From contig CAYLKL010000007.1 in NCBI GenBank assembly GCA_964384645.1, forward strand, positions 1 through 43,526: 43,526 bases of DNA. Direction: 5' to 3'. Positions 1,327-28,724 of this stretch are shown one piece after another (the stretch's first letter is position 1; every line of letters starts with the position of its first letter). The notes beneath the pieces are model-generated. The model saw only the letters and a program-made list of their open reading frames with translations. It was not told the origin of the DNA and ran no database searches. A program made the position numbers and the translations under genes. This DNA is from an uncultured Candidatus Saccharibacteria bacterium. GTDB lineage: Bacteria > Patescibacteriota > Minisyncoccia > Phycocordibacterales > UBA9973.

Positions 1327-2598
1327 ATGGCAAATAAAAATAAAAAAACTGTAAAGAAGGCAAAACCAAAAGTAAAAAAAGTGGTTAAAAAATTGGTTAA
1401 AAAAGTTTTGAAAAAGAAACCAGCAAAAAAGGCCGTAAAGAAGGTTGTAAAAAGGGCCGTAAAGAAACCTGCTGTTAAAAAAGAAAAAGGTATTAAAAAT
1501 TTAACACCCAACCAAAAGAAAGAACTTGAAATGCTAAAGAGGGCAAATTCTTTGGTTACAAAAGGGAAGAAAAGGGGTTTTATTACGTACGACGAAATTT
1601 TGAAAGAATTGCCGGATATTGAGTCTGATATTTTACTATTGGATGAACTGTACGAAAAATTAGCTTCTGCGGGAGTTGATGTTTTGGAAGGTGGAAATTT
1701 GCTTGATATAGACGCCAACACTAAGGCGTCAGATTTGGGTCTTTCAAGAGATTCGAGTAGTTATGATTCTGTCCAAATGTATCTTAAGGAAATCGGTCAA
1801 TTTTCTTTGATTACTGCCGCTATGGAAAAAGATTTAGCGCGAAGAATTGAAGCTGGAGATCCTGAAGCTAAAAATCTTCTTGTTCGAGCAAACCTTAGAT
1901 TGGTAGTTGCTAATGCTAAAAAATACGCACAAAGAAGTGCTGACCTTACCTTGCTTGATTTGATACAAGAGGGAAATTTGGGATTGTTTAAGGCGGTAGA
2001 AAAGTTTGACTGGAGAAAGGGTTATAAGTTTTCAACTTATGCTACTTGGTGGATCAGACAGTCTATTACCAGAGCACTTGCAGACCAATCAAGAACTATT
2101 CGTATACCTGTTCACATGGTCGAAACTATTTCAAAATATAAACAAGTTGTTAGAAGATTGTCTCAAGAGTTGGGGCGCGATCCGCTTGCTGAAGAAGTCG
2201 CAACTGAAATGGGGTTAGATATTGAAAAAATTAGAACTATCGAAAGTATAAACCAAGACACGATGTCACTAGAGGCACCAATTGGAGATGACTCAGGAGA
2301 CGACAAGTCAACTCGTGGAGAATTTATTCCAGATGATAAGATTTTAAGACCTGACCAAGAATCTTCACGAAGAATTCTTCAAGATCAAATCAAAGCAGTT
2401 CTTGATGAATTGAATCCAAAAGAGAGAAAGATTTTGGAAATGCGTTACGGATTAACCGACGGAATCCAGCATACCCTTGAAGAAGTGGGACAAGAATTTG
2501 GAGTTACAAGAGAGCGTATTCGACAAATTGAAGCCAAGGTTCACGACAAGTTACGAGCACATGAAAGAATCGCAAGATTGAAAAATTATTTTGATTAA
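1327..2598 (+). CDS. rpoD: Primary sigma factor RpoD (sigma-70) with an unusual Lys/Ala/Val-rich basic N-terminal extension of about 55 aa
   Basis: Regions 1.2 to 4 are conserved ([40 protein letters not shown]; region 4 [22 protein letters not shown]). The gene starts 5 bp after dnaG. Confidence 0.93.
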
Positions 2599-2602
2599 AT
2601 AT

Positions 2603-2632
2603 AAAAAGCGTCTGAATATCAGACGCTTTTTA
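2603..2632. terminator. Bidirectional intrinsic terminator between the convergent rpoD and dsbA-like genes
   Basis: Hairpin GCGTCTGA-ATA-TCAGACGC, flanked by an A-run upstream and a T-run downstream. Confidence 0.75.
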
Positions 2633-2667
2633 TATTTGTAAGATTCCAGTATAAATTAGTAATATCT

Positions 2668-3381
2668 TTATTTATTTTTTATTGCGTCTATCTTTTCTAT
2701 AACTTTTGCATAAGATAATGCTCCGTTAATTGTGTCTACAATAACTCCATCTTTTCTTATTACAGCAAACGGCGTGCCCATTTTGTCAGTTAAAGTCTTA
2801 ACTTCTTCAATATCAGCATCAACTTGAGCGCTAATATTTGGATCTAATAAACACTTAGAAAACAAATCTTTATTTAATTCAATACTTTCCGCTATTTCTG
2901 GAAGCATTGCTGGAGGTAGTCCGTCATTTGAAGTTGTAGAGTCAAAAATTGCATCTAAGTACCTCCAGAAAATTATATTTCCACCTTGTTCTTCTGCGCA
3001 TTCTGTTGCCACTGCTTCGTTGTAAGCGTACTTATGTAGACCGCTTAGTGGTAGGTGTTTATATACCCACGCAACTTCACCTTTGTAGTTATCTATAACT
3101 TGGTGCATTGTTTTGTGGAAGTTTTTACAAAACGGACACTCTGTATCTGAATACTCTGTTATTACAATTTGAGCTGTTGGCGAGCCTAGTCTGTGATCAT
3201 TTACAGATGTTTCTGTCGGCTTTACTTCCCATGCGTATGTATATTTTTCAGCAGTGTCTTTTGGAAGAATTTTATCGCTAGTAATACCTGTTGTTGGTAA
3301 TTTGAAAAAAATTGCTACTGCAATAATAATTCCAGCTAAGACTATTGCTTGTGGAATGTTTAATTTTTGGTTTTCTGTCAT
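2668..3381 (-). CDS. DsbA-like thiol:disulfide oxidoreductase (thioredoxin fold), membrane-anchored
   Basis: N-terminal TM helix and a CPFC active-site motif (ECPFCKNFH). Confidence 0.75.
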   Translation of the reverse strand: MTENQKLNIPQAIVLAGIIIAVAIFFKLPTTGITSDKILPKDTAEKYTYAWEVKPTETSVNDHRLGSPTAQIVITEYSDTECPFCKNFHKTMHQVIDNYKGEVAWVYKHLPLSGLHKYAYNEAVATECAEEQGGNIIFWRYLDAIFDSTTSNDGLPPAMLPEIAESIELNKDLFSKCLLDPNISAQVDADIEEVKTLTDKMGTPFAVIRKDGVIVDTINGALSYAKVIEKIDAIKNK

Positions 3382-8092: not shown

Positions 8093-8701
8093 ATGACAAA
8101 AGTCGCAGACGAAAGACTGGGTGCGTTTATGCGTTTCCAGCACGATATTACCGAAAGGGTAATGAGAGGATCTTTGGATCCAGAAGAAGTTGAAAATGCA
8201 CTTCGTAGTTTAATTGGACAAAGATCAAAAAAAGGAATCCTTAAACTGATTTCTGGAGCTGAAACGTTGATGCTTGATGCACTCGACGGCAAAGAGACAT
8301 TGGCAACCGCTAAGGAAGTTTTCCTGTCAGGCATTGGTCACGACTTCGAAAACTGGCACACCAACAAAGCCGGCATCGCAACCATTGAACAGGCAGTGGA
8401 TGTTCACGAACTGATACAGAATGCCACCTTTGCACAGATGTTCTGTTCCCTAGGAACTGATCTGGACAAGCTGTGTTTAACACAAGCCCAGATAAAAAAA
8501 TTTTGTAAAAAGCATCCTCAGTGGCTGCACCAAAACGGATATATGACTTTCTTCCTGTTTAAGGTTGAGGACCAGTTCTTCGTTGCCCGCGTGGACGTGT
8601 TCGTTGGCGGCTTGCGCGTCCACATAAATCGGTTCAAGGACGGCCACGTTTGGTTTGCCGAGTTCTCCCATCGCTTGGTGGTTTCGCAACTGACCGCTTA
8701 G
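8093..8701 (+). CDS. Hypothetical protein encoded in a compositionally atypical, GC-elevated segment (the ORF track starts it at 8048)
   Basis: Long ORF within a 1.2 kb spacer. GC is markedly higher than in surrounding genes, especially 8560-8700. No recognisable family; possible horizontal acquisition. Confidence 0.45.
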   Translation: MTKVADERLGAFMRFQHDITERVMRGSLDPEEVENALRSLIGQRSKKGILKLISGAETLMLDALDGKETLATAKEVFLSGIGHDFENWHTNKAGIATIEQAVDVHELIQNATFAQMFCSLGTDLDKLCLTQAQIKKFCKKHPQWLHQNGYMTFFLFKVEDQFFVARVDVFVGGLRVHINRFKDGHVWFAEFSHRLVVSQLTA

Positions 8702-21535: not shown

Positions 21536-21588
21536 TTTGTTAAGTTTTAGTTTTGCTCACTTTACACTTCTAATATATACTTGTCAAA
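21531..21588. promoter_or_regulatory. Promoter/5'UTR module, copy B. It lies in the 54 bp divergent spacer between gene 21266..21535 and uvrC and may act bidirectionally.
   Basis: Near-identical to copy A. The same TTGACA-17-TAAAGT arrangement appears on the minus strand. Confidence 0.55.
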
Positions 21589-21589
21589 C

Positions 21590-22801
21590 ATGAAGATTTC
21601 TGACTTGAAAAAGTTTAAGTTACCTGATTTATCAGGCGTTTATTTCTTTAAAAAAGGAGGGGATTTGTTGTACGTCGGGAAGGCTACTTCTTTAAAAGAT
21701 CGAGTTAAAAGCTATTTTTCGAAAGATCTAATAAACACTCGAGGGCCACTAATACTTGATATGGTTTTCAAGGCTGACAAAGTAGATTTTATAGAAACTC
21801 AAAACGCACTCGAGGCATTGGTACTCGAGGCGGCACTTATAAAAAAACATCAGCCATACTACAACACTAAAGAAAAAGACAATAAGAGTTTTAATTATGT
21901 TTGTATTACAGATCAAGAAATACCGCTTGTAGTAATTGAGCGTGGGAAAAATATTGATTTTAAAAATCTGAGCACTAAAGACTATAAAATAAAGAATCTG
22001 TTCGGCCCTTTCCCAAATGGAAACCAACTCCGTGACGCGCTAAAGATTCTTCGGCGTATTTTTCCATTCATAGACAAGTCATCAATTCAAAAAGATAAAA
22101 GTGTTTTTTATCGACAAATCGGACTTAGTCCAGATATAGAAGATGAAAATGCTATAAAAAAATACAAGAAAAATATAAAAAATCTGGAAATGTTTTTGAG
22201 CGGATCATTTGGTGATGTGCGAAAAAATCTAGAAAAAGAAATGTTTGATTTTGCAGAGTCTTTAAAATTTGAAGAAGCAAATACTATAAAGAAAAAACTT
22301 TTCGCCCTTGATCATATAGAAGACGTGGCTCTAATAAAAAGAGAGAATATAAACAAAACAAATGAAAGAATTGAAGGTTATGATATTGCTCATATTTCGG
22401 GAAAAAATATTGTAGGAGTGATGACTGTTGTAACAGGGGGTGAGCCTGAAAAAAATGAATATCGAAAATTTAAAATTCAAACTGTAAAAAGCAGTAATGA
22501 CACTGAGTCTTTAAAAGAAGTTCTTCGCCGAAGACTAAAACACCCCGAATGGCAATATCCTAAAGTTATTGTCGCCGATGGTGGAATCGCCCAAAAAAGA
22601 GCACTTGAGTCTGTTATAAAAGAAAACAATTTAGAAATACCCGTCGTTTCTGTTGTAAAAGATAATCGCCATAAGCCTAGAGCTATATTGGGTAGTAAAA
22701 AAATAGTAGATAAATATAAATTAAGTATTCTTTTAGTCAACCAAGAATCTCACAGATTTGCAGTAAATTTTCATAGAAAACTCCGTTCTAAATTGGTATA
22801 A
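21590..22801 (+). CDS. uvrC: Excinuclease ABC subunit C, short form lacking the C-terminal (HhH)2 domain (ATG at 21590; the track starts it at TTG 21581)
   Basis: GIY-YIG N-terminus (GVYFFKKGGDLLYVGKATSLKDR), the UVR region and the endonuclease region (RIEGYDIAHISG...ESHRFAVNFHRKLR). Confidence 0.88.
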   Translation: MKISDLKKFKLPDLSGVYFFKKGGDLLYVGKATSLKDRVKSYFSKDLINTRGPLILDMVFKADKVDFIETQNALEALVLEAALIKKHQPYYNTKEKDNKSFNYVCITDQEIPLVVIERGKNIDFKNLSTKDYKIKNLFGPFPNGNQLRDALKILRRIFPFIDKSSIQKDKSVFYRQIGLSPDIEDENAIKKYKKNIKNLEMFLSGSFGDVRKNLEKEMFDFAESLKFEEANTIKKKLFALDHIEDVALIKRENINKTNERIEGYDIAHISGKNIVGVMTVVTGGEPEKNEYRKFKIQTVKSSNDTESLKEVLRRRLKHPEWQYPKVIVADGGIAQKRALESVIKENNLEIPVVSVVKDNRHKPRAILGSKKIVDKYKLSILLVNQESHRFAVNFHRKLRSKLV

Positions 22802-22808
22802 TGTTTCC

Positions 22809-23741
22809 ATGTCATTACGAGTTGGAGTTGTACGAGGTGGAATTAGTCCTGAATATCAGGTTTCTTTGAGTACGGGAGAGGCAATTCTAAAAGTAATAAA
22901 AGAACTAGCACATGAAGCAGATGACGTTGTGATTACAAAAAAAGGAGATTGGATAAATCGTGGTCTTTCTGCTTCAGCTCAAAAAATCTGCCAAAAAAAC
23001 GATGTCATTTGGAATTGTCTGCACGGTGAATATGGAGAGGATGGAAAACTAGAAGATCAAATTTCTGGACTTGGCGCAAAGATAATTGGAAAAACAGGTT
23101 GGGGAAGTGCTTTGACTTTAAATAAGGATTCAGCAAAAAGACACGCTGAGAGTTATGGCTTTCCTGTATTTCCTCATATTGTAATAAAACCAGAAGATGA
23201 AAACAGAGCTCGAAAAGTTCACAATACTTTTTCAGGTCCTTGGATAATAAAACCTCTTAAGAGTGGTTCGTCTTTAGGGATAAATGTTGCAAAATCATAT
23301 CCGGAATTAGAAGAAAAATTAGCTGATATTGAAATAGAAGTAATCGTCGAACCATTTTATAAAGGTAGAGAAATAATAGTCGGCGTTGTCCCTGAGCTAA
23401 GAGGAAAAAAGTGGTATAGCACAATCGTTTTGGAATTAAAGAAAGATGGACATATTTTGTCATATGACGATTTGGAAAAAGGTTCATACAGATTATTGCC
23501 TTTGAAGGACTACGGAATAGAACAAAAGCATGCCCTTTCTGAAATGGCAGAACTTGTCGGAGATGTCTTTAATTTAAATTATATGTACCTAACTCAGTGG
23601 ATAGAAACTCCACGCGGATATTTTTTGATAGACATAGATTCTCTTCCTGCACTTGATGATAATTCTATATTTAGAAAAAGCGCAGAACACTCTGGAGTAA
23701 ATCTAAAAGAAATAGTTGAAAGTATTCTAAAAAATATATGA
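22809..23741 (+). CDS. ddl: D-alanine--D-alanine ligase
   Basis: N-terminal VGVVRGGISPEYQVSLSTG and a C-terminal ATP-grasp domain. Confidence 0.8.
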   Translation: MSLRVGVVRGGISPEYQVSLSTGEAILKVIKELAHEADDVVITKKGDWINRGLSASAQKICQKNDVIWNCLHGEYGEDGKLEDQISGLGAKIIGKTGWGSALTLNKDSAKRHAESYGFPVFPHIVIKPEDENRARKVHNTFSGPWIIKPLKSGSSLGINVAKSYPELEEKLADIEIEVIVEPFYKGREIIVGVVPELRGKKWYSTIVLELKKDGHILSYDDLEKGSYRLLPLKDYGIEQKHALSEMAELVGDVFNLNYMYLTQWIETPRGYFLIDIDSLPALDDNSIFRKSAEHSGVNLKEIVESILKNI

Positions 23742-24004
23742 TGCAAACAGAATTTCCAAATAATTTTGGTTTTATGAATTTTTCAGGAATTGAATTTATG
23801 CCTTTGATAATGCAGTTCGCATTTTTTGGAGTTTTGCTTTTTACATCTGTTAGTCTTCTTATCTCATTTTTGCACTTGATATGGTACGGGTCTAGTAGTA
23901 CTAGATCTTTTTTATCTTTGGCTATTTTTGTTTTTGTTGCTGGGCCACTTTTTATATTTGCTTATAAAATAATGCCAAGTGTTTTATTTAGATTAAATAT
24001 ATGA
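23738..24004 (+). CDS. Small membrane protein (2 TM), probable partner of the following bPH_2 protein
   Basis: ATGA overlap with ddl. Hydrophobic. Confidence 0.5.
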   Translation: MMQTEFPNNFGFMNFSGIEFMPLIMQFAFFGVLLFTSVSLLISFLHLIWYGSSSTRSFLSLAIFVFVAGPLFIFAYKIMPSVLFRLNI

Positions 24005-24519
24005 AATTTTTAACACAAGATGAAAAAGTAATAAAATCCGTCAGAAAAAGTTGGCTTGTTTTGTTTTTTGAATTTTTAAGTCTGGTGATCGCCGGGGCAC
24101 TACCATATTTTATGTACAGTTTTGCACTGACTCATGAAATGAATAAAATTCCTGGTTTTGTTTTGAGCCCAGAAACTTTTGAATTTTTCTTTTCACTTTG
24201 GATTTTGATTTTGTGGACTTTGATGTTTGTCCGATATGTAGATTTTTATTTGGATCAATGGGTGCTTACAAATGAGAGATTGATTGATATAGATCAAAAA
24301 GGATTTTTTAATAGACAAGTTTCGACGCTTCATTTGGATGCTGTACAAGATATAACAATCGAATCAAAAGGTCTTTTCCAGACAATGTTCAATTTGGGAA
24401 CGATTACTGTTCAAACTGCTGCGACCGAAAGGGAATTCGTCATTCGAGATATTCCAAACCCTGAAGGGGTAAAATTTGTTATTAGTGAACAGGTTGAGGT
24501 GATGAGAAAAAGAATTTAA
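24001..24519 (+). CDS. Membrane protein with a bacterial PH domain (bPH_2/YdbS-like)
   Basis: Two N-terminal TM helices followed by a PH-like domain (VLTNERLIDIDQKG...GTITVQTAATEREF). Confidence 0.65.
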   Translation: MKFLTQDEKVIKSVRKSWLVLFFEFLSLVIAGALPYFMYSFALTHEMNKIPGFVLSPETFEFFFSLWILILWTLMFVRYVDFYLDQWVLTNERLIDIDQKGFFNRQVSTLHLDAVQDITIESKGLFQTMFNLGTITVQTAATEREFVIRDIPNPEGVKFVISEQVEVMRKRI

Positions 24520-24546
24520 AAATCCCCACCAAGTGGGGATTTTTAA
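24518..24546. terminator. Bidirectional intrinsic terminator
   Basis: AAAAATCCCCAC-CAA-GTGGGGATTTTTAAAT. Confidence 0.7.
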
Positions 24547-24547
24547 A

Positions 24548-25279
24548 TTATTGCGAAACCTCACTGAGTTTGTTTTGGGTCATCATTCCCGCAACGCCGT
24601 CAATGGGATTAAGATTGGTGCGATCCTGAAAAGCCTTAACAAGTGTTACGGTTTTATTTCCGTATATTCCATCAATTATTATTGAACTATAATCATTACC
24701 ACCACCAACCATATTGGTAGATTCTCTTACATAATAATTCTTAATTGCCTGCTGAAGTGCTCGTACATCATCTCCTCTCATTCCATATTTTAGAGTATAT
24801 CCGACTGGGGTATAACCTGTTGGATTTGGCAATGGTGGGTTTGGGTTTTGCCTTGTTACAAGTGAATCATATGCAGATTGCGCTTCAGACATTGTGTTGT
24901 AACCTGTTGAAAATTGGTTACCTCTTTCCACGTGTCTAATTACAAAGGCATCATTTGCCGGAGCAACTACAACATAGTATTTGTTTGAACTGAAATCAAA
25001 TGCGGTAGTACAAGATGTTCCATTTCCTTCTAGTACAACATACTGAGTCGGAATTGCAACCGCCGTCATGATTACTGGGTAATTTTGAACCATAGCAGCT
25101 ACGACTTGCCCCGAATCCATTGGTTTAACAATAGAAATTTTTCCTCCTGCATTTAAAACTTCTTGGCGTGTGATCGGTGGCGGTGTTCCTGGGGCAAAGC
25201 TACAAGCCTCTGCTTTTTGAGCAGGGAAGCTACTAATAATAAGTCCTATAATCGCAAATAAATAAATAAATTTTTTCAT
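24548..25279 (-). CDS. Secreted protein with a C-terminal peptidoglycan-binding domain (PG_binding_1-like)
   Basis: Signal peptide, and a C-terminal LQQAIKNYY...IDGIYGNKTVTLVKAFQ...DGVAG pattern. Slightly elevated GC. Confidence 0.6.
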   Translation of the reverse strand: MKKFIYLFAIIGLIISSFPAQKAEACSFAPGTPPPITRQEVLNAGGKISIVKPMDSGQVVAAMVQNYPVIMTAVAIPTQYVVLEGNGTSCTTAFDFSSNKYYVVVAPANDAFVIRHVERGNQFSTGYNTMSEAQSAYDSLVTRQNPNPPLPNPTGYTPVGYTLKYGMRGDDVRALQQAIKNYYVRESTNMVGGGNDYSSIIIDGIYGNKTVTLVKAFQDRTNLNPIDGVAGMMTQNKLSEVSQ

Positions 25280-25404
25280 ATATAAACTATTAGACGGATA
25301 ATAATCAATTATATGACAAAAACAGATAAATAGTGTCCAGTTGCTAAAAATTCCAAATATAGTTAGAGTAGGGAAAAATGTACTAACCTTAAAACTTAAT
25401 AAAT

Positions 25405-25797
25405 ATGAGCGTAGAAAAATTGCGGATCCGTATTATAGAAATTAATAGACCGATAAATAAAGTAGAAGGGTCTATAAAAGAAATTTATCGACATTTCAAA
25501 ATACATCCATTTGATGCAAGTGTTGAATTTAAAGAGGAAGAAATTAGTGGATTTAAAACTGCCCGAGTAACATTCTTTAATATAGGATCACCACTTTATT
25601 TAGGAAAAAGTTTTCCAGAAATTTTCCCTGAATGTGAAGATATTGAAGAAAGAAAAGAGGACTCACCTGAAGATTTTGTTGATTTTATTTTAGATAATAT
25701 CTCAAGAGATAAATTTTTTGATATTTTAGGTCAGAGATTTGAAGTTGACGTAAAACTTCTTTCTGTAGAAAAAAAGATGCCGGTGATTTGGTTGTAA
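25405..25797 (+). CDS. Hypothetical protein
   Basis: The ORF has its own terminator. No family was recognised. Confidence 0.5.
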   Translation: MSVEKLRIRIIEINRPINKVEGSIKEIYRHFKIHPFDASVEFKEEEISGFKTARVTFFNIGSPLYLGKSFPEIFPECEDIEERKEDSPEDFVDFILDNISRDKFFDILGQRFEVDVKLLSVEKKMPVIWL

Positions 25798-25799
25798 AA

Positions 25800-25836
25800 A
25801 TGAAGGTCTTCCAAGTGGAAGACCTTTTTTGCTTTT
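25800..25836. terminator. Bidirectional intrinsic terminator
   Basis: AAGGTCTTCCA-AG-TGGAAGACCTT followed by TTTTGCTTTTT. Confidence 0.75.
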
Positions 25837-25884
25837 TATAAATTTATGATAGTCTGAAATTAAGATTGTAACTTAAAGAAGGTG

Positions 25885-26085
25885 CTTTGGGGGATGATAG
25901 CGAAAGCGAGTCTGAATAGGGCGTAAAGGGTTATTCCAAACTTGTAAGCAGTTGCCAAAGATGTTACTACTAATGTCGTGAGGTAACGGTTAAGTCCGTA
26001 AATTAGGTTAATTCCTGTTCTATGGCTAAAAGAGAAATAATTCTTCAGCCAAGAAACTGCCACGTAAGTGTGAGGAAGAAGGAAA
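25885..26085 (+). other. 16S rRNA-like mosaic/remnant. It consists of short blocks nearly identical to universally conserved 16S segments, in 16S order, with the roughly 1 kb that normally separates them deleted.
   Basis: TGGGGGAT..GCGAAAGC..CTGA at 25888-25916 resembles the 16S 350-400 region. GGGCGTAAAGGGT at 25919-25931 matches the 16S 570 region. TGTCGTGAG-GTAAC-GGTTAAGTCC at 25974-25997 matches 16S 1070-1095. AACTGCC..GAGGAAG..GTGACAAAT at 26055-26090 resembles 16S 1160-1200. The unit lies between plus-strand terminators. The track ORF 25860..26099 has only a GTG start and is probably spurious. Confidence 0.5.
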
Positions 26086-26131
26086 AGTGACAAATACACT
26101 TTTAATAAAGTGAACTATTTAATACAATCTT

Positions 26132-26160
26132 ACCCAACCTGTACAGGTTGGGTTTTTTAA
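26132..26160 (+). terminator. Intrinsic terminator (ACCCAACCTGTACAGGTTGGGT plus T6) closing the rRNA-like unit
   Basis: Perfect 9 bp stem followed by TTTTTT. Confidence 0.7.
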
Positions 26161-26295
26161 TCCACAGGAATCTCGAACCTTACAGGTTCAGTACACCTTT
26201 TCGGTGAATTCAGAATTAAAATTCTTCATTCATATCGAAAAGCTTTTCGAGTCCTGACGCAAGTGAAGCAGTGCCCTTGCTTAGGTTCCACAATA

Positions 26296-26331
26296 AAAAA
26301 AGCCGTCTTTCGACGGCTAATTTTTTTATTG
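26296..26331. terminator. Bidirectional intrinsic terminator directly downstream of the minus-strand tRNA-Ala(UGC)
   Basis: A7-GCCGTC-TTTC-GACGGC-TAATTTTTTT. Confidence 0.75.
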
Positions 26332-26341
26332 TGGACCCTAC

Positions 26342-26414
26342 AGGACTCGAACCTGCCACCCCCTCATTGCAAATGAGGTGCTCTACCAGATGAGCTAAGG
26401 GCCCAATTACAGAA
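26342..26414 (-). tRNA. tRNA-Ala (anticodon UGC), CCA not encoded
   Basis: On the minus strand: GGGCCCT-TA-GCTC-ATCTGGTA-GAGC-A-CCTCA-TTTGCAA-TGAGG-GGGTG-GCAGG-TTCGAGT-CCTGT-AGGGTCC-A. The G3:U70 Ala identity pair is present. Confidence 0.85.
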
Positions 26415-26545
26415 TGGATAATATCAAATTAACCATTATGTGTCACTATATTAACCTAAAAATCGTTGTTTTGTAAAGCGATTTGGTTTACTATTAATTT
26501 TAGTCCTTATTCTGTAAGAATATAGCCTCGAAATCGTCATAACCT

Positions 26546-28649: not shown

Positions 28650-28651
28650 TG

Positions 28652-28724
28652 TGGACCGTACCGGGATTGAACCGGTCGCCCCTTCCATGCCATGGAAGCA
28701 CTCTACCAAATGAGCTAACGGCCC
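28652..28724 (-). tRNA. tRNA-Ala (anticodon GGC), CCA not encoded
   Basis: On the minus strand: GGGCCGT-TA-GCTC-ATTTGGTA-GAGT-G-CTTCC-ATGGCAT-GGAAG-GGGCG-ACCGG-TTCAATC-CCGGT-ACGGTCC-A. The G3:U70 pair is present. Confidence 0.85.

Follow-up and report, generated by a model that had tools for sequence, protein, structure and literature searches.

Contig CAYLKL010000007.1 of an uncultured Candidatus Saccharibacteria bacterium (G+C about 35%) was analysed in its entirety, and this whole stretch of 43.5 kb (43,526 nt), hereafter the window, is the reference for all coordinates unless a comparison locus is named; names from L002 to L035 denote loci and contigs fetched for comparison. The genes of the window are those of an ordinary chromosome (dnaG, rpoD, rpsB-tsf, mreBC, tgt, truB, uvrABC, and ddl), together with genes for an extracytoplasmic function (ECF) sigma factor with its DUF5667 partner, a TraG/VirD4-like ATPase, and an MmeI-type enzyme. 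This set of genes resembles that of an uncultivated lineage with small genomes. No ribosomal RNA (rRNA) gene was found on the contig by Rfam scan. A 750-nt stretch otherwise without genes houses two structured elements, here named unit A and unit B, and tRNA-Ala(UGC). Unit A is most likely a separate small noncoding RNA gene, with a body of about 270 nt, and it joins a copy of 23S rRNA helices H29 and H31 to a diverged copy of a 16S rRNA sub-domain that includes helices h34 to h40 (Table 1).

The two rRNA-derived modules of unit A

Comparison of the whole window with the fetched rRNA loci by blastn returned a block (E=5.6e-6) in which 25898-25924 is identical to Arthrobacter 23S rRNA at 27 of 27 positions, and the same block aligns with other 23S genes over 26-30 nt at 93-100% identity. 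The same two helices, H29 and H31, are present in E. coli 23S. On a narrow slice, the Rfam large subunit (LSU) model RF02541 placed 25898-25923 at its positions 669-694 with a match to the consensus at 26/26 positions, although the score of 11.8 bits falls below the gathering score of this 2925-position model (50 bits). An earlier note on this DNA had described the spacer as a compressed mosaic of 16S rRNA blocks, and the strings that it quoted are all present where it had placed them. Its first blocks, TGGGGGAT..GCGAAAGC and GGGCGTAAAGGGT, are actually the two ends of the single continuous 23S stretch (27/27), and the sharing with E. coli 16S is limited to the 10-mer GGGCGTAAAG. In the ribosome, H29-H31 form a self-contained helix-packing motif whose H31 strand touches L35 (PMC2879513); removal of uL15, bL33, and bL35 shifts H29/H31, and these proteins keep the helices in place (bioRxiv 10.1101/2022.03.10.483802). 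We also considered whether all of unit A could be a compressed 23S (strings ACTAATGT, GGTTAAGT, and AGGTTAAT), and this was rejected, as a collinear-chain test against shuffles gave z values of -0.9 to -0.1.

The second module is a single contiguous match to the 16S. The Rfam small subunit (SSU) model RF00177, run on the slice 25962-26100, gave an unbroken alignment of 25962-26095 to model positions 1050-1190 (26.6 bits, E=1.7e-6), in which 134 nt of the window extend over 141 model positions, corresponding to native length and spacing. The remaining strings of the earlier note, TGTCGTGAG-N5-GGTTAAGTCC and AACTGCC..GAGGAAG..GTGACAAAT, belong to this match and were rightly taken as 16S-like; the proposed squeezing of about 850 nt into about 200 nt falls away, since blocks 1-2 were misassigned and the true 16S part keeps its native spacing. 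Being confined to positions 1050-1190, the 26.6 bits miss the RF00177 gathering score (50 bits, full 1533-position model). A covariance model of our own, derived from nine real 16S segments (E. coli 1046-1211), was run with filters off on the window and four related loci (60 kb). Its best and only convincing match was the unit A site (27.1 bits, E about 9e-6), and the second-best was the counterpart in L021 (13.8 bits). A check against SSU and LSU models had been proposed earlier; Rfam scans of the whole window and, with permissive settings, of an 801-nt slice (25700-26500) reported no rRNA match, which by the refuting condition set in the earlier note would have counted against rRNA homology. 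This was a filter artefact, a partial rRNA match of 26 bits being lost at the speed filters, and narrow slices then gave both matches. A k-mer chain test limited to the 3' part was marginal, with z up to 2.7.

The 16S-like part is 48% identical to the SSU consensus and retains 42 of the 71 highly conserved positions. All helices from h34 to h40 align, with mostly standard pairs, despite the 52% of positions that have changed. The stem of h36 with its GUGA loop, the UUAAGU loop of h37 with its G-C closing pairs, and the strings ACUGCC and GAGGAAG are identical to 16S, and the universally conserved GCAACGAGCGCAACCC is swapped for another sequence that still pairs. Judged from its sequence, this part presents exposed features that appear selectively retained on a preserved scaffold, and it looks like neither a working piece of 16S nor mis-assembled 16S reads; with an identity of only 48%, the chimeric assembly of a real 16S gene that had been named as a possible cause does not apply. 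In the ribosome, h36 contributes to the uS2 site (PMC6007441). In many of the public 16S genes among L002-L019, the usual GAGATGTTGGGTTAAGTCC lacks one G and appears as GAGATGTTGGTTAAGTCC, which could be a real variant or a homopolymer error, and the rRNA genes of L010 (Streptococcus infantis) are indel-rich and scored poorly.

Both modules are borne by one long stem, composed of P1 to P3, that runs directly into the terminator of unit A. The two plus-strand terminators recognised in the earlier note were located at 25802-25827 and 26132-26153, with a T run after each, and its minus-strand tRNA-Ala(UGC) was likewise recovered (26331-26404). The one-way action of the second terminator and three G-U pairs in P4 fix the plus strand, from which we infer that unit A would be transcribed. 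The candidate -10 box has counterparts in two of the related loci (TATGTT in L021, TATAAT in L029), at the same 11-nt distance before P1 in all three. The only long open reading frame (ORF) in unit A, on the minus strand (79 aa), was rejected as a protein gene, being disrupted in L021 and having no Pfam match and a single weak, apparently spurious match (P0018, E=3.5e-4). RNase P RNA, transfer-messenger RNA (tmRNA), signal recognition particle (SRP) RNA, 6S RNA, group I/II introns, and riboswitches were unsupported by Rfam or ARAGORN, and at gathering score no Rfam 15 family was found in unit A or unit B, tRNAs being the only calls.

Table 1. Coordinates of unit A, its helices and modules, and the flanking features in the window
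Feature	Position	Strand	Remarks
130-aa ORF	25405-25797		Upstream of unit A
Intrinsic terminator of the 130-aa gene	25802-25836	+	11-pair stem, then T run; left border of unit A
Candidate -10 box TATGAT	25845-25850	+	11 nt upstream of P1; read from the sequence only
Unit A	about 25857-26160	+	Most likely a small noncoding RNA gene
P1, 5' strand AAGAUUGUA	25862-25870	+	Pairs with 26123-26131
P2, 5' strand CUUAAAGAAGGUG	25872-25884	+	Pairs with 26097-26110; extends the P1 stem
P3, 5' strand CUUUGG	25885-25890	+	Pairs with CCAAAG, 25955-25960; leads to the 23S module
P4	25891-25937	+	GGGAUGAU (25891-25898) with GUUAUUCC (25930-25937); encloses the 23S-like module
23S-like module, H29 and H31	25898-25923	+	H29, GC-GAAA-GC; H31, AGUCU-GAAUA-GGGCG
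16S-like module, h34 (top), h35, h36, h37, h38, h39, h40	25962-26095	+	Diverged sub-domain copy; SSU model 1050-1190
h34	25962-25967/26087-26092	+	Closes the 16S-like domain
h35	25970-25974/26002-26006	+	
h36	25975-25984	+	GUGA loop
h37	25986-25999	+	UUAAGU loop
h38	26013-26016/26080-26083	+	
h39	26018-26055	+	
h40	26057-26075	+	ACUGCC before, GAGGAAG after
P2, 3' strand CACUUUUAAUAAAG	26097-26110	+	
P1, 3' strand UACAAUCUU	26123-26131	+	Closes unit A, abuts the terminator
Intrinsic terminator of unit A	26132-26160	+	Works in the plus direction only
Unit B	26161-26290	unsettled	Conserved structured element, not rRNA-like
Two-way terminator	26301-26325		Separates unit B from tRNA-Ala
tRNA-Ala(UGC)	26331-26404	-	Neighbour of unit A, outside the unit A RNA
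ECF sigma gene	from 26546 onwards		

Conservation and exchange of unit A among relatives

The lineage is sparsely sampled, with three other proteins that resemble the upstream ORF and five that resemble the sigma factor at >65% identity. L021, a locus from another sample, shows the same succession of unit A, unit B, and tRNA as the window. The two copies of unit A are 86% identical overall and 96% identical across the first 90 nt, and between the same loci the identity at third codon positions is 60-77% in five flanking genes. Unit A has therefore evolved more slowly than synonymous sites, suggesting purifying selection, in a neutral-rate comparison that consists of one informative pair (window and L021) plus L029. 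Between window and L021, 14 of the 89 proposed pairs differ; 10 of these 14 remain standard pairs, and the other 4, which lie at helix ends, are broken. Substitutions are found in 9% of the paired columns versus 21% of the unpaired ones. More specifically, P2 has undergone three changes with its pairing kept (one GC to AU, two GU to GC/AU), and one AU to UA change in the terminator is compensated.

A more divergent unit A is present in L029, whose sigma factor is 67% identical to that of the window and where the orientation of the block with respect to the sigma gene is reversed. Its 5' core is 74% identical to the window over 95 nt (E=2.7e-7), and the motif CACUUUyAAAUAAGUGAAC at the 3' strand of P2 is common to both. 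The closing stem of L029 is formed by a different complementary pair, UGUAUGAA/UUCAUGCA, and stems also stand in the places of P2 (GAAAGUG/CACUUUC), P3 (CUUUGAG/CUCAAAG), and P4 (GGACGAU/AUCGUCC, a perfect stem around its module). The 23S-like module has drifted to AGCGAAAGCAAGUCUUAACGUGCGU. L029 also has GUCUUAAC against GUCUGAAU in the window. Instead of h34-h40, L029 carries a copy of 16S helix 18 (h18) and the 530 loop (GUGCCAGCAGaCGCGGUuAAaC), in which 23 of 26 positions match real 16S and both stems are replaced by other pairing sequences. With our own h18 model this copy was the top match in 60 kb (22.5 bits, E about 0.001).

In two further relatives, L020 and L022, unit B and the tRNA are retained and unit A is lacking, an unrelated element of about 290 nt being found there. 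The uvrC and ddl genes of L020 share 90-92% identity with those of L021, yet unit A is present in L021 only; the unit B of the window, in turn, is 93% identical to that of L022 and 64% identical to that of L021. Along 21581-26545 of the window, the closest relatives are L020 and L021 in uvrC/ddl, the window and L020 in the 130-aa ORF, and the window and L022 in unit B. These sequence relationships indicate frequent recombination around the locus, with what appears to be a mosaic kinship among the four genomes. Unit A thus seems to behave as a conserved yet dispensable, modular, and exchangeable accessory cassette rather than as a core gene. It is absent from the more distant sigma-factor neighbourhoods L031-L035, and a pattern scan of genome contigs returned chance or real-16S matches only.

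The replacement element of about 290 nt (minus strand in both, L020 4705-5000 and L022 1381-1670) lies on the other strand than unit A and is probably another small RNA, with a terminator of its own and a TTGACA-N17-TATTAT-like promoter. Within it, AAACUGCC is followed by a hairpin and then by GAGAGGAAAC, which recalls the h40 region of 16S; no significant rRNA match was obtained for the element. Only in L022 does an extra gene (1759-2718, minus strand; 319 aa, no Pfam match) lie between this element and unit B.

Possible function and rival explanations

Of the mechanisms considered for the unit A RNA, the most economical and most likely would be that of an rRNA-mimic decoy or sponge for ribosomal or other rRNA-binding proteins, a tentative reading to which we give a probability of roughly 0.4. 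Such an RNA would display copies of rRNA sites to proteins that recognise these sites in ribosomes or in subunits under assembly, and would bind these proteins or titrate them away from the ribosome. Published ribosome structures offer as candidate partners bL35, and also uL15/bL33, for H29-H31; uS2, plus its neighbours uS3/uS5, for h34-h37; and uS12/uS4 for h18. Assembly factors or rRNA-directed toxins would be equally possible partners. The patchy distribution and the swapping of modules would fit a conflict-related or accessory role better than a housekeeping control of ribosomal proteins. A small RNA made of rRNA protein-binding motifs had already been put forward in the earlier note; the structural part of this proposal stands, its block identities and its inclusion of unit B do not, and the decoy function is what we infer from the structure.

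Several observations weigh against a decoy of this kind. The would-be binders of a solvent-side 23S motif and of a 16S head/neck domain form no obvious functional group, and no ribosomal-protein gene is linked to unit A, rpsB being 18 kb away. The lack of unit A in the close relatives L020 and L022 sits poorly with a role in the housekeeping balance of ribosomal proteins. A promoter scan did not call the candidate -10 box, and no convincing -35 was found. The known examples are three, two of them close relatives, and covariation statistics are accordingly weak: the shuffle control gave 136/500, having no power with two sequences, so that the evidence from pairing is supportive and not decisive. 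Metagenome and viral scans returned no further members, and in phage and plasmid BLAST searches only real 23S genes matched, via the block of 26-28 nt.

To our knowledge, the only known cases of rRNA mimicry are short leaders that act in cis on ribosomal-protein operons, and a stand-alone chimera of 23S and 16S domains was not found in the limited set of literature searched. The autoregulatory leaders (L1, L10, L20, S8, S15, S2) are likewise nonribosomal RNAs that copy the sequence and fold of an rRNA site, and unit A shares this feature, as H29-H31 is exact and the h36/h37 loops are exact with compensated stems. Leaders, however, are cis-acting 5' untranslated regions of the operon that they control, with one site for one protein, and are much shorter, whereas unit A is a stand-alone gene bounded by terminators, with pieces of both rRNAs and a whole 134-nt sub-domain. 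Its position is not that of a leader, given the terminators on both sides, the downstream unit B, opposite-strand tRNA, and ECF sigma gene, and the lack of ribosomal-protein neighbours. Protein-sequestering RNAs, such as 6S RNA (which mimics open promoter DNA), CsrB/RsmZ, and bacterial Y RNAs with their tRNA-like modules, also imitate a ligand, and some of them are modular; in unit A the imitated ligand would be rRNA, and no sequence or structure match to those families exists.

The earlier note had also suggested the decayed relic of an rrn operon. In its neutral form, this explanation holds that fragments of rRNA genes were left without function by a lost or rearranged rrn operon or by a repair insertion, and we regard it as unlikely. 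As with orphan rRNA fragments and rRNA pseudogenes, which are rRNA-derived, located outside rrn operons, and beside spacer-type tRNAs, a typical spacer tRNA, tRNA-Ala(UGC), is found 170 nt from unit A, but the modules lie on the opposite strand, the tRNA being on the minus strand, and the 23S piece is 5' of the 16S piece, which does not correspond to the order 16S, tRNA-Ala, 23S. The loss of universal 16S nucleotides such as GCAACGAGCGCAACCC, with 42 of 71 conserved positions kept, would suit a decaying copy, as would a recombination hot spot with mosaic kinship and the presence or absence of unit A. Unlike a pseudogene, however, unit A is a 23S/16S chimera in its own stem with its own terminator, its helices pair despite the 52% change, and it is better conserved than synonymous sites. 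The modules moreover sit inside stems that covary in L029, followed by a terminator, and this distant relative has an equivalent unit with another 16S module. Strand, order, framing, kept pairing, and slow evolution together make the relic a poor fit.

A cassette or mobile-element RNA established at the tRNA-Ala locus, in which the rRNA parts would supply borrowed folding modules or rDNA homology instead of acting as a decoy, is in our view quite unlikely. The setting is favourable to it, since unit B opens with an attachment-site-like, imperfect repeat of the tRNA-Ala 3' end, the site of unit A is taken in L020 and L022 by the unrelated element of about 290 nt (with the extra 319-aa gene in L022), and the whole block is inverted in L029; the self-contained packing of H29-H31 (PMC2879513) would also make it a suitable folding module. 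Yet no integrase, transposase, reverse transcriptase, or homing endonuclease gene was found near unit A, unit A itself is not flanked by terminal repeats, and a 16S part at 48% identity is too diverged to provide homology for recombination.

It is very improbable that the transcript delivers genuine rRNA pieces (H29-H31 and h34-h40) in trans to a fragmented rRNA, the long stem being a processing stalk. The long P1-P2 stem does resemble the stems at which RNase III processes rRNA precursors, the native length and all helices are preserved in the 16S-like domain, and short separate units, some with processing stems, are also found where rRNA genes are fragmented or scrambled (in some mitochondria, and in bacterial 23S cut by RNase III). 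Unlike these, unit A has lost universal core nucleotides, those of h35-h38 being replaced, and is dispensable among close relatives, some of which are without it; L029 would moreover require a different trans piece, and the 23S and 16S pieces share one enclosed fold. Finally, chance resemblance or an assembly chimera, for which the whole-window and 801-nt Rfam scans without rRNA match and the marginal k-mer chain test on the 3' part alone (z up to 2.7) could be cited, is hardly credible against two independent covariance models with E values of about 1e-6 to 1e-5, the exact 27-mer match to 23S, the presence of unit A in independent assemblies from other samples, and a 16S part too different from real 16S (48% identity) to come from mis-joined rRNA reads.

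Extending the decoy reading beyond the window is somewhat more doubtful. Unit A and its sister form could represent a family of modular "mini-rRNA" RNAs in uncultivated small-genome bacteria, composed of H29-H31 plus either h34-h40 or h18, acting as decoys in trans and swapped like cassettes. If true, this would be a new use of rRNA structure outside the ribosome, in which one free-standing RNA combines a 23S motif with a whole 16S sub-domain or, in the sister form, with the 530-loop hairpin. Such RNAs could soak up ribosomal proteins or assembly factors in trans, or they could serve as decoys when rRNA is attacked, the latter role fitting the patchy, cassette-like distribution. Similar RNAs may be widespread and overlooked by standard whole-sequence Rfam scans.

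Unit B and other features of the window

Unit B had been included in the rRNA-like region by the earlier note, but it has no significant similarity to rRNA, and nothing resembling a 23S 5' end was found on the minus strand, where one had been suspected. As a 5S-like or 23S-like element, unit B was rejected for the lack of a significant match, and the 5S-like string is not conserved in L021. Counterparts of unit B are located at 5434-5575 in L021 and 2868-2997 in L022. It forms three hairpins, two of which stay paired through many compensated changes among the window, L021, and L022, as in GCAAGUGAA-GCAG-UUCACUUGC versus ACACGCAAA-GCAG-UUUGCGUGU.

The first 20 nt of unit B imperfectly repeat, in direct orientation, the 3' end of tRNA-Ala (ACAGGA[AT]CTCGAACCT; 26160-26185 versus 26331-26360), and this suggests a resemblance to the attachment-site repeat that an integration into a tRNA gene may leave. 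In L029, the place of unit B between the unit A variant and tRNA-Ala is occupied by a different segment, G+C-rich and about 270 nt long (60-335 in minus-strand reading). This segment holds GTGGTACGCG, a 10-mer also present in 23S around position 2570, and gave no significant rRNA match by BLAST. Several independent short-read assemblies (L023-L027, at position 1, L030, and L035) break in or beside tRNA-Ala(UGC), upstream of the sigma gene, which suggests a repeat or strain variation at this point.

Two observations concern other parts of the window. At 28651-28724 on the minus strand, ARAGORN calls a tRNA-Ala(GGC) where the Rfam tRNA model is silent at gathering score, and this may be an unusual tRNA or a false call. 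An ORF at 8094-8701, in a 1.2-kb gap upstream of rpsB, has no Pfam match and a G+C of 0.42, versus about 0.34 around it, and may have been horizontally acquired.

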